Source: Octopus sinensis (Eukaryota). Taken from it: a DNA stretch of 64,000 nucleotides. The translations under genes were made by a program, and so were the position numbers. The notes beneath the pieces were generated by a model, which ran no database searches, was not told where the DNA came from, and saw only the letters and a list, made by a program, of their open reading frames with translations. Shown here one piece after another: positions 11,545 to 59,685 of the stretch (positions are counted from its first letter, which is position 1; each line of letters starts with the position of its first letter). The stretch is taken from contig NC_043009.1 in the NCBI RefSeq assembly GCF_006345805.1, positions 47,678,001 to 47,742,000 on the forward strand. Direction: 5' to 3'.

Positions 11545-11642
11545 CAAGGCTGTGTGGTAAGAAGTTTACTTCCCAAATAAATGGTTCTGTGTTCAGTCCC
11601 AATGAGTGGCACCTGAAGTAAATGTCTTCCACTATAACTCCT

Positions 11643-11682
<40 letters not shown>

Positions 11683-12070
11683 GAGGACATTATTACACAT
11701 AAATGCCACACGCTAGGAGGGACTTTCAAAGTCATTACTACCAAAAATAAACGAATCGTACTGAATGCAGCTCTCGAAGCAAGACATTTAAAAACAGAAT
11801 TTAGTTCCAGATCACCTGTGATTTCGCAATTAACGTATTATCTACGTCTTTGTTCATCAGTGAAATGAATTCAAAACATATCAAGAATGAACAAAACCAA
11901 CATACCCGGCAGAACCAAACAGATAACCGTCGCCTCCATTATATATATATATATATATATATATATCAATGAGTGTGTATCTGAGTTTGTCCCCACTGCT
12001 TGACAACCAATGATGGTCTGTTCACAAACTTTTAACTTAGCAGTTCAGCATAAGACATTGTAAAATAGGA
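11545..12070 (+). mobile_element. SINE family A split by a ~260-bp insertion (11680-11940) inside its (TA)n
   Basis: Head at 11545-11645; 3' half (TTTGTCCCC..TTGACAACC..AACTTAGCAGTTCAGCA) resumes after 11965. Confidence 0.75.
11805..11865 (-). ncRNA. Type I hammerhead ribozyme
   Basis: Minus strand TTTCA-CTGATGA-ACAA..ACGTA..TACGT..TTGC-GAAA-TCAC-AG-GTGA-TC-TGGAA: intact CUGAUGA and GAAA cores, stems I, II and III all pair, AUC cleavage triplet. Confidence 0.75.
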
Positions 12071-18866: not shown

Positions 18867-20290
18867 TATGTGTTACAAGCATTTTTAGGCTTGGTAAACT
18901 ACTATCAAGTATATATCTCGAACATACACAACACAAGGGCTCCACTAAACGAGCTGTTAAGAAAAGATGCCTAATGGTTTGGGTCAGAAAAATGCCAGAA
19001 GGCATTTGAAGAACTAAAAAGCATGTTATCTTCAGACTTATTGCTTACACACTTCAATCCAAAGTTGGAAATGATACTGGCAACAGATGTTAGTGAGTAT
19101 GGGATAGGTGGTATACAAATGTGAAGATGGCAGTCAAAAGGACATAGCTCATGTGTCAAGGATGTTATTTCAAGTGGAAAAAAAATTATAGCCAAATTGA
19201 AAAAGAGGCATTGGTGATTATATTTGGCATGAAAAAGTTCCATAGATTTATACATGGTAGATGGTTCAGACTACAAACAGACCATCGCCTGTTGCTAACG
19301 ATTTATGGATCCAAGAAAATAATCCCAGTACATACAGCAGACATGTTCCAGCGATGGGGCACTATACTTCTAAACTACAACTACACAATGGAATATTTAC
19401 CTTTGGAAAAGCTAGGACATGCTGACTGCCTATCCAGGTTAATACTCAGAAATGGTCAACTATTTAAAGATACAGTAATAGCAGCCCTAAGAGCCTAAGG
19501 GGGAAATTAAACATATAATGTGCAACATTGTACAAGAGTTACCAATAACTCTGGAGGAGATAAAGAGATATGCATCAAAAGAGAAGTTCATTAATAAAAC
19601 AAAACAAAAACTCTGTTGTCAGCTAAAGAAAACAAAAATAAGTTTGGTAAGAACAGCAACAGGTAAACATGTATTCAACATGCGATGGTGTGCTGCTGTA
19701 TGGCCAAATGGTAGTGATACCTGTGACTTTACAAAAAAGAATGTTGAAAGAATTCCATATTGGACATCCAGGGATTGCAAGAATGAAAGCACTTATGTGC
19801 AGTTGTGTGTATTGGCCAAAGATGGACAAGGAAGTTGAAAACATGGTAAAAGGCTGCAGAGGATGTATGCTGGCAGCGAAATTGCCTACTCAAAAATGGG
19901 AAACTTGGCCAGAAATAAATCCATGGTCAAAACTACATATCAATTTTGTGGGTTAGTTAAATGGTTATTACTACTTAGTAGTAGTTGATGGTTTTACAAA
20001 ATGACTGGAAATCGTTAAGTGCAAAAGACCAACCTCCAAGTTGGTAGTAAATTTTTTGAACAAATTATTTACAAGATTTGGCATCCCAGACGTGATTGTA
20101 TCTGATAATGGAACACGATTTGTGTCTAGTGAATTTAGAAAATTCTGCAAAAACATAAAACATTAGTGCTTTACCATCCCAGATCAAATGGACAGGCAGA
20201 GCGTTTTGTGGACATTTTAAAAAGAGCTTTGAGAAAAGCAAACAAAGAAGTCACAGACGAAGTTGCTCTGTAGTAATTCCTAAGGGTATA

Positions 20291-28624: not shown

Positions 28625-28976
28625 TGTGTGTGTGTGTGTGTGTGTGTGCATATATGTCATTTTCCCTGTGCATATTTTTTTGTTGTTAAATACATTGAAT
28701 TTCTCAAAATTCTGCCAAAGGAGATTTTGATTTACTTGTCGTACATGAGGATTTACCTTGGATGTGTATTCTACTGATATTTACTGGTGACTAATTGTTG
28801 GATATTGGTAACCAAATTCTTTTAATATTGAGTGCTTTATTGATATCTGCCAGGATTTTTAAGTCCCCTTTTATCCTTCTTAATACATACATACATACAT
28901 GCTTTTACACATACACATAAATGCACACACACTTAACAAAATACACACACACACATACACACACGTGTATGTACAT

Positions 28977-29016
<40 letters not shown>

Positions 29017-29345
29017 ATATATGTCATTTTCCCTGTGCATATTTTTTTGTTGTTAAATACATTGAATTTCTCAAAATTCTGCCAAAGGAGATTTTGATTT
29101 ACTTGTCGTACATGAGGATTTACCTTGGATGTGTATTCTACTGATATTTACTGGTGACTAATTGTTGGATATTGGTAACCAAATTCTTTTAATATTGAGT
29201 GCTTTATTGATATCTGCCAGGATTTTTAAGTCCCCTTTTATCCTTCTTAATACATACATACATACATGCTTTTACACATACACATAAATGCACACACACT
29301 TAACAAAATACACACACACACACATACACACACGTGTATGTACAT

Positions 29346-29378
<33 letters not shown>
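28625..29378. repeat. Near-perfect tandem duplication, period ~367 bp, bounded by (TG)n
   Basis: 28649-28990 repeated from 29016 onward; differences only in microsatellite length. Confidence 0.95.
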
Positions 29379-31019: not shown

Positions 31020-31200
31020 ACTAAGAAAGTAGGCTGCAACAGCGTCACCGAAAGAAGTAGCAGTGTTTGAAATGACTTGTTCTTGGTAACAGTTCTGACG
31101 TTTTAAAAGGGATAGGTTGAAAGACGGACGTCACGTCGGAAGTAAACAGAATCAATGGAACAGACAAGCATTTTTCAGCTCTTGTAATCTCAGTTGATTT
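31020..31200. promoter_or_regulatory. Candidate pol II promoter (CRE/ATF-like GACGTCACGT, ETS CGGAAGT, forkhead GTAAACA)
   Basis: Overlapping motifs at 31127-31148, local CpG enrichment, TE-free flank, minus-strand donor GTGAGT at 30776. Confidence 0.45.
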
Positions 31201-31435
31201 CTGTTGCTGACATTGCTTTGACGCTACACTGATGGGTGACATAGCACTACTGTCAGTGTGTGTACGTGTGTGTGTGTGTGTGTGTGTGCATGTGTGTATG
31301 TGTGTATGATTATACGCAAGTGTTAAGTCTTTAAAAAAACATATACTTAAATGATGCGCACATGCATACACACACACATGCACGCATATATATATAGTTC
31401 AACACCCATGGAAAATGGACATTAAATTATGATCA

Positions 31436-58114: not shown

Positions 58115-59685
58115 ATAAGTTTTTATCAAAGTTGTTTTATATTCTATAATTTTCACAGACAATAAATACGAATTAATTGTTATTGTCTGAGATTTTGGTA
58201 TAATTTGAGAGGATAATACAAAAGTTATGGATGATTTAGTAATTTACTGCAAAACCCATGGCGGCCAAAATTATCAGAACGGTTGAAAAAATAACAAAAT
58301 AATCAAAAATGACAGAGAAAACTGGAATTATTCAATATTTAGTGTGAAGCCCTTTAGGTTCAATCACACTTTGACATCTTCGACTGCATGAGGAAATTAA
58401 ATTTTCAATTTCTTGCTAGGTGATCTTATTCCATTCTTCCTGAAGGGCATTCCATAATTGCTCGGTTGTTTTAGGATTTCTGGCTTTTGAACATTCTCCA
58501 AGAATATTCCACACATTTTCAATAGGATTGAAATCTGGGCTTTGAGCAGGCCAATCCATAATAATAACCTTTTCAGCCTTGAGGAAGTTCATGACCACCT
58601 TAGCCTTGTAACATGGGGCATTGTCCTGCATGAATATGGGTGGTCGCTTAGTTGAATTTCTCAGCACAGGCAAGACATGATCTTTTACAAGTTGTTTATA
58701 AACTCCTGCAATTACCTTTCCATGTAATCGCACCAAAGGGCCCACACCATCTCCAGATATCATCCCCCAAACAATGACACTTCCTCTACCGAATTTAACA
58801 CTAGTCTTAAGGCATTTAGGCGACAATTTTTCACCTACTTTTCAATGAACATATCTTTTCCCATCTGAGCCAAATAACATAAACTTCATCAAACTTTCAT
58901 CACTGAAATGCACCGTTTGCCATTTTTCTTGAGACCACAACACAAGTTCGGTTGCAAAGGTAAGACGACACTTTTTATTTTTGGAGCTGATCAGTGGCTT
59001 CACTGCTGGTGATCTTGCTTGTAGGTTATGTTCAACTAAACGATGAGACAAGTTTTTCCAGATAACATTTTCTTCAGTACAATGCTCATTTCCCGAGAGA
59101 CAGCAGCAGCAGTTTTAAATCTGTCCTTTTTAACCAAATTTACCATAGCACGATCTTTTCTCTTGGTCGTTTTTCTTGGCCTATCTGTAGACTTTCTTGC
59201 TTCACACGAACCACAATCATCAAAGACCTTAAGAATACCGTGAGCAACACTTTTTGACTTGTTAACAATCTTTGCAATAGACCCAATACTTAAATTATCC
59301 TTCTTTCGAAGCTTAATAATCTGCTGATGAATTGATAACAGAGTAAGTGGCATTATATTAACAAAGTACACTGCAGATATTCTTACTAATGTTTAGTAAA
59401 CGAACCGTCACGTAAACAAATTCAAAACATTAGGGTTCGCCGGTTAAATATACTAAAACATGGAGTAAAAGCACCCGTTCTGATCATTTTGGCCGCCATG
59501 GGTTTTGCAGTAAATCACTAAATCACTGTATTATCCTCTCAAATTACACCAAAATCTCAGACAATAACAATTAATATCGTATTAATTGTCTGTGAAAATT
59601 ATAGAATATAAAACAACTTTGATAAAAACTTATACCTACTTTTCTGGCGAAAACAATGCCGTTCTGAACATTTTGGCCGCAACTG
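58115..59685 (-). mobile_element. Tc1-family (DD34E) transposon with long IR/DR-type TIRs; transposase pseudogene 59353-58332
   Basis: HTH plus DRPRKTT, VHFSDES, FMQDNAPC, WPAQSPDFNPIENVW, GLHTKY*; TIR 59475-59685 ends AACTG-TA; opposite TIR 58115-58282 lacks its outer ~50 bp; frameshifts. Confidence 0.95.

Follow-up and report, generated by a model that had tools for sequence, protein, structure and literature searches.

A hammerhead-bearing insert in an octopus TA microsatellite as a probable non-autonomous Penelope-like element

The minus-strand insert at 11683–11940 of the window, the 64,000-nt stretch of the Octopus sinensis genome analysed here, is a 5′-truncated copy of a non-coding repeat of about 490 nt with a covarying hammerhead ribozyme. 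The repeat family enters TA microsatellites in the pattern of Penelope-like elements (PLEs) and therefore is likely a non-autonomous PLE, or animal retrozyme, that uses a borrowed reverse transcriptase (RT) and GIY-YIG nuclease. It is not an autonomous PLE. Judged from its sequences, it appears to work like an animal non-LTR retrozyme and to insert like a PLE, and so to belong to the animal retrozyme or non-autonomous PLE class. The initial annotation had read the insert as a fragment of a non-coding, ribozyme-bearing retroelement landing in TA microsatellites, and the family, the insertion anatomy and the TA ends all bear this out.

The window copy comprises bases 228–485 of the ~485-nt unit of subfamily A. 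By homology it is 92–96% identical to the top-scoring copies, and its best matches share its 3′ end and extend 5′ past 11940. TA tracts lie on both sides as first annotated, at 11647–11682 by the 3′ end, where the tract opens with the unit's own AU-rich first bases as the putative priming site, and at 11940–11966 by the truncated 5′ end. Outside the tracts, one dispersed repeat, presumably a SINE, has its left half at 11548–11645 and its right half at 11974–12067 (both plus strand), which confirms that the insert splits a repeat. In 30 other left and right pairs of the genome, this host repeat runs unbroken across a TA tract of its own, and about 50 bp of it are gone here before the left tract, beside the element's 3′ end. 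Taken by itself, the window copy is ordinary.

The extended type I hammerhead motif occupies 11797–11872 of the minus strand and has the CUGANGA, GAAA and NUH core and three helices, being open at helix I. Every box, stem and triplet claimed initially was found in its place. Helix I pairs UUUCA (11865–11861) with UGGAA (11809–11805) and is followed by the core box CUGAUGA at 11854–11860, whose C3, G5, A6, G8 and A9 are invariant in 28/28 alignment rows chosen partly by core patterns. Helix II at 11826–11853 starts with A10.1 (11853) facing C11.1 (11826) in the place of G10.1-C11.1, then has three more pairs (CAA/UUG), an internal loop with an invariant A at 11830 and a six-pair distal stem (GACGUA/UACGUU) around the loop GAUAA. 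The stretch at 11810–11825 holds the GAAA box (11825–11822), the quasi-palindromic helix III UCAC-AG-GUGA within AUCAC-AG-GUGAU (11822–11811) and the AUC triplet (11812–11810), with the predicted cut between 11810 and 11809. Two further elements were absent from the initial annotation: the outer helix I of GAAU (11872–11869) with AUUC (11800–11797), and the bulged U1.7 at 11803, invariant in the 28-row alignment and predicted to make a tertiary contact with the loop-2 A (11830).

Searching with hammerhead models, as had been advised, gave no match of the Rfam hammerhead models to the window region at the gathering score or at E≤10. The 91-nt ribozyme region folds no better than its shuffles (z −0.59), and the insert is also unremarkable (z −1.31). 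Hence, the case rests on the homologues. The pattern search advised with it was productive: a hammerhead pattern without a fixed helix III gave 890 genomic matches versus 12 in the control, one with helix III fixed gave 544 versus 0 in the reversed control and an earlier pattern gave 51 versus 0. Among the 100 matches listed of the 890, 97 are family members and 89 of these 97 keep four helix III pairs by an eye count.

Covariation was examined in 28 natural copies selected by hand and aligned, the rows being chosen partly by core patterns. The named structure is paired in 95.3% of the cells and 13 of its 25 pairs are changed on both sides, including all six of helix I and 7/10 of helix II across subfamilies. 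None of 500 shuffles reached the observed covariation, a control that relatedness of sequences alone can beat without structure, and slid controls were 24–41% paired. Helix I consists of six pairs, then the internal loop with U1.7 and then the outer helix, and helix II of four pairs followed by the internal loop with the 3′ A. Both bases are invariant in 28/28 rows; U1.7 and the loop-2 A are described as Hoogsteen contact partners in extended hammerheads (PMC11875169), so we infer the same tertiary contact here by analogy. The cleavage triplets are AUC, AUA and AUU across the subfamilies. Thus, instead of the single-copy sequence lacking stem covariation that would have spoken against a ribozyme, the family is multi-copy, its helices I and II covary and it supplies naturally covarying sequences of an extended hammerhead missed by Rfam.

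The A·C at the base of helix II had been taken as a sign that this copy may be weakened, which the homologues do not support. It is present in 25 of 30 subfamily-A rows retrieved by homology alone, some of them arms or duplicates of one place, and also in the young subfamily I. The core is intact in 23 and broken in 7 of the same 30 rows. Therefore, the A·C is a subfamily trait rather than decay. In the 28-row alignment, positions 10.1/11.1 are G-C in 16 rows and A-U in 4, the other subfamilies having either of these. G10.1-C11.1 is described as highly conserved in hammerheads (PMC4209133), and we found no published measurement of an A·C effect at 10.1/11.1 in the accessible parts of the literature. 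The family has been amplified repeatedly with A·C replacing the conserved pair.

It is highly implausible that the resemblance to a hammerhead arose by chance, or that an ordinary dispersed repeat carries the dead remnant of one. The absent Rfam match, the two folding scores, the A·C and the broken cores would suit such a reading, but helices I and II undergo compensatory changes across subfamilies that are 74–83% identical, while the core and tertiary bases stay invariant. Moreover, families farther removed show this design as well. The window copy has rare or private changes, namely G-to-A where helix I ends distally, the loss of one base from the internal loop of helix II and one G-C changed to G·U in the 3′ hairpin, and its predicted fold is not the active form, with helix I and III probabilities near 0. 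Efficient cleavage by this copy alone is unlikely. It lacks a tail and carries a single ribozyme, and so probably gives rise to no further copies.

Helix III shows no covariation within subfamilies A–I, and other families carry other palindromes. Its middle is either AG or the perfectly palindromic AU. The predicted energy is +1.5 kcal/mol for the hairpin and −9.0 (AG) or −13.6 kcal/mol (AU) for the self-duplex. It is predicted to be unformed in 6/7 monomers tested (probability at most 0.02), in most cases owing to pairing between UCACAG and the CUGAUGA box, and helix I has a probability of 0.48 at most in six circular monomers. By these predictions, helix III would form only between two RNAs. 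The initial annotation had pointed out that hammerheads with a tiny stem III often cleave as dimers, a mode described in PMC4209133 and PMC7229834, and the predicted energies agree with it.

A copy-number search, also advised initially, revealed a multi-copy family. The insert had 2306 genome candidates at first look, 40 of which were scored and gave 45 matches of 92–98% besides itself. The copies share the 3′ end and reach 5′ beyond the window copy, and some continue into the unit's own start. The closed unit is 485 nt in subfamily A and 474–499 nt in the family with a GC content of 33–34%. There are about nine subfamilies (A–G, I and variants, labels being our own), and those compared are 74–83% identical to A, distant members being undersampled in a copy set obtained by patterns and homology. 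Copies are 98–99% similar in the young subfamily I and ~95% in A. An older relative, family H (L104, L198–L227), has a unit of ~418 nt, 210 candidates, 71–84% identity, an extra base after A9 and, in many copies, helix III UCAC-G-GUGA.

Nine natural monomers from cut site to cut site, 418–499 nt long and one of them with helix II deleted, close without an ORF. Their longest sense frames are 39–91 codons, and no RT or GIY-YIG ORF contiguous with the unit was found in the loci read. The predicted circle is stabler than shuffles in 8/9 of them (z −2.0 to −4.9). Opposite the element, on the plus strand of the window insert (11680–11940), an antisense frame stays open over 100–150 codons in subfamilies A and C and in part of the I copies; it has 134 codons in one subfamily-A monomer and 102–129 in four C/I monomers (shuffle P 0.003–0.02). 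As a coding frame it was rejected, given pN/pS of 0.76–0.99 between subfamilies, many frameshifting indels and stops, and no Pfam match. No RNA run was listed as containing the family. Contigs of three presumed-RNA runs and one unlabelled run do contain family sequence, with strand, ends and level unreadable there, and were set aside as evidence of expression. These contigs are labelled with two organisms (X1, X2 and X5, A; X17, C), so the family may be shared among related species, and one such run may be the window's own source.

For insertion anatomy, 91 insertions from loci L001–L112 with three loci left out were mapped on the subfamily-A unit, after duplicates and insertions near locus edges were dropped. 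A few segmental duplicates remain among them, and the loci were chosen for a high score or an early place in a listing, not at random, a bias favouring junction ends. The insertions are 214–973 bp long, 54/91 cross the unit junction and 34/91 have an inverted 5′ arm. The initial annotation had raised a tandem arrangement, which stands in part: partial tandems reach about two units, but none of the loci examined showed three or more units in a row. Tandem copies carry two consecutive hammerheads, whereas the window copy is solo. Target-site duplications, expected to exceed 4 bp for retrozymes, are masked by the TA tracts.

The outer 3′ ends are fixed at two places, the unit junction and the end of a tail about 130 nt beyond it. 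Among 125 such ends, 64 lie at the junction (u477–485), 49 at u96–137 and 12 elsewhere. Within u96–137, 39 are at u121–137 and 10 at u96–107, the latter likely being tails of diverged subfamilies cut short by BLAST. TA adjoins 111/125 of the 3′ ends versus an 11% background, and the 5′ ends are scattered. In 26/34 inverted insertions one end is a junction and the other a tail, none having two of a kind, and in 7/8 of those tested no other copy resembles an arm more closely than its partner arm does. No outer 3′ end falls at the cut site (u358; 0/125 at u350–366). The cut site lies within most copies and at the end of none, which points to a circle, or to an uncut more-than-unit RNA, as the likely template, with priming at an internal position.

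These features are those described for PLE insertions, namely partial tandems, an inverted 5′-truncated copy, a tail at one end and a preference for TA (PMC8557442), and a circular-template model has been proposed for such elements (PMC4209133, PMC7229834). A route for the octopus family could begin with transcription of two-unit source loci. Paired hammerheads would then cut with helix III formed between two ribozymes, a lone ribozyme being held off by the UCACAG-CUGAUGA pairing, a step that we moderately favour. The monomers would plausibly be ligated into circles, or else the more-than-unit RNA would be used directly. Next, a Neptune-type enzyme would nick (TA)n and the freed 3′ end would, with fairly good confidence, prime at either AU-rich site and not at the cut site. 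The synthesis would halt prematurely, and in many cases the opposite strand would be primed as well, leaving the inverted arm.

Neptune-like PLEs with the linker CxxPxCxxC, RT and GIY-YIG are present in the genome, and those read end in TA tracts. One such family has open 780-aa frames, and another has copies that are 99% identical. In the search for the helper, 150 of the 5029 GIY-YIG candidates were scored and loci or longer stretches, 50 in all, were read; none of these 50 showed an autonomous PLE sharing sequence with the unit. The initial annotation had advised a check for linkage to RT and GIY-YIG ORFs, and in the loci read no contiguous copy emerged; an ORF-linked copy was likewise missing from the GIY-YIG loci, family H and the L170 element described below. 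With no shared PLE sequence found, the helper is therefore deduced from the target and the anatomy only.

The copies could instead be truncated pseudo-LTR ends of an unsampled autonomous PLE and not a self-contained unit, which we regard as unlikely. Their anatomy is that of PLE insertions, most PLE copies are reported as 5′-truncated and the search covered only the candidates and loci counted above. Against this, the 3′ end runs directly into the unit start in the 54 junction-crossing insertions, and the ORF-less monomers close on themselves. PLE proteins near the copies are on the other strand or are separated by TA tracts or other DNA, and the three autonomous PLE families read carry different, minimal hammerhead-like motifs. 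The sole direct fusion of the unit with a PLE, at L031, is best explained by a younger PLE in the unit's TA end. A template-switch chimera that would name the helper was considered for this fusion and rejected, the preferred account being that a member of a PLE family with 99% identity inserted there afterwards.

Alternatively, a non-autonomous unit may owe its movement to a LINE that targets microsatellites or to rolling-circle copying of DNA, and the hammerhead would then serve RNA processing only. This appears improbable, even though no sequence link to any PLE sampled was found, and 5′ truncation and inversion arise with LINEs as well. LINEs were also left open as helpers in PMC7229834. 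However, the family is devoid of poly(A) or a LINE-like 3′ end, the PLEs sampled in the genome end in the same TA tracts, and terminal redundancy, the one-end tail and TA targeting are described as PLE hallmarks. Non-autonomous use of PLE enzymes remains the preferred reading.

The unit junction appears to be a structured domain. RNAalifold on 19 junction-spanning copies gave a 7-pair helix, P1, that joins u452–458 to the tail; its 5′ strand is at 11709–11715 (minus strand) and its partner is in the tail that the window copy lacks. The fifth P1 pair is A-U in 8/8 pattern-picked family H copies versus G-C in A–I. P1 has a probability of 0.79–1.0 in 5/6 circular monomers and 0.17 in one, and its formation requires a tandem or circular RNA. 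A second, covarying 3′ hairpin, P2, lies at 11685–11707 (minus strand) just before the fixed 3′ end, and 3/8 of its pairs change on both sides. A role of P1 in priming is speculation.

More tentatively, the unit might be a minimal telomerase-RNA-like template for the Penelope RT. Its three-helix domain, which requires an intact unit junction to form, would load the enzyme and set the two (TA)n priming sites, and the helix III switch would silence a lone ribozyme and pair two RNAs. One dimer would then prime both DNA ends, giving head-to-head insertions tailed at one end. We hold this for a rather remote prospect.

Compared with the animal non-LTR retrozymes as described in PMC7229834 (Cervera and de la Pena 2020) and a 2026 preprint (Li, Clavereau and Pollet, 10.64898/2026.07.22.740005), the octopus family likewise has a non-coding low-GC unit with one type I hammerhead each, head-to-tail copies and co-occurrence with PLEs. 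Its unit is slightly longer, 474–499 nt versus the 150–450 nt reported. Unlike classic retrozymes arrayed as 2- to 62-mers, it is dispersed, mostly below two units, with inverted arms, a tail and strong TA targeting. The preprint proposes that retrozymes are non-autonomous PLEs and reports cleavage by 1/9 of the retrozyme dimers tested. In Xenopus, 24/57 retrozyme families are reported to match known elements, nearly all PLEs, whereas no PLE pseudo-LTR match was found in the 50 loci or stretches read here.

The pseudo-LTR hammerheads of Neptune-clade EN+ PLEs are described as type I near the 3′ end with a palindromic helix III (PMC4209133; PMC8557442), as in the octopus family, and these PLEs share its partial tandem, inverted 5′-truncated copy, one-end tail and (TA)n targets. 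The (TA)n preference is a trait of Neptune and Naiad PLEs that the octopus 3′ ends reproduce. Unlike autonomous EN+ PLEs, the unit carries neither RT nor GIY-YIG ORF, and unlike the minimal PLE hammerheads described, its ribozyme is extended (6-bp helix I, internal loop, outer helix, U1.7 and loop-2 A). Subfamilies A–I also lack the extra base between A9 and 10.1 that is reported for PLE hammerheads and occurs in family H. The tail is ~130 nt versus 30–40 nt given for PLEs.

The Athena/Terminon elements are described to have a structured 3′ region and a hammerhead near a target-complementary stretch (PMC6431247), which is comparable to the arrangement presumed here for the AU-rich sites. Terminons are, however, reported to target telomeric overhangs with no nuclease, whereas the octopus family targets internal (TA)n and would prime ~130 and 260 nt away from the cut site. 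No prior description of the family was found in the literature, while Repbase, Dfam and the supplements of PMC13282606 and the 2026 preprint may list it. The accessible main text of PMC13282606, a curated octopus repeat paper, makes no mention of ribozymes. The family bears on how animal retrozymes move and on why PLE insertions show partial tandems, inversions and a tail on one side. Since a single genome contains hundreds of its short fixed-end insertions, together with subfamilies and candidate helpers of young age, it offers a compact test system.

Several other elements were noticed. A very young Neptune-like PLE family (L031:1139–3956, L164–L177) has 936 candidates, 99% identity and TA-tract ends, and is a candidate helper. 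Another PLE family (L143–L147) has the open 780-aa RT/GIY-YIG frame, an upstream 479-aa frame that overlaps it in two copies and a hammerhead-like motif with a U3-A8 core variant. A further non-coding hammerhead family in TA tracts (L160:6401–7146, L144:5603–6004, L069:2475–2836) shares the design of ours but little of its sequence; it has A-U at 10.1/11.1, an AG/AA internal loop, the palindromic helix III UCGG-U-CCGA, a junction end with a ~100-nt tail and an inverted arm. A young repeat (L170:365–630, L228–L257) has 892 candidates of 93–98%, a minimal hammerhead, a junction end like that of the retrozyme family, a ~65-nt tail and inverted copies in TA tracts, and no linked ORF was seen within 1.5 kb. 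A hammerhead-like motif with a long helix II and a palindromic CAUAUG at helix III is found at L148:7522–7637 (minus strand).

In the window, no host gene was recognised among the 20 of 39 open frames scanned, which gave transposon domains and one sub-threshold match only. The domains include an RT RNase H fragment at 19148–19495 (plus strand) and a DDE_3 transposase fragment at 58419–58841 (minus strand). The sub-threshold match is to Capsid_N near a simple repeat at 31048–31398 (minus strand) and probably is chance. A recent tandem duplication of 367 bp with 99% identity lies at 28625–29378.
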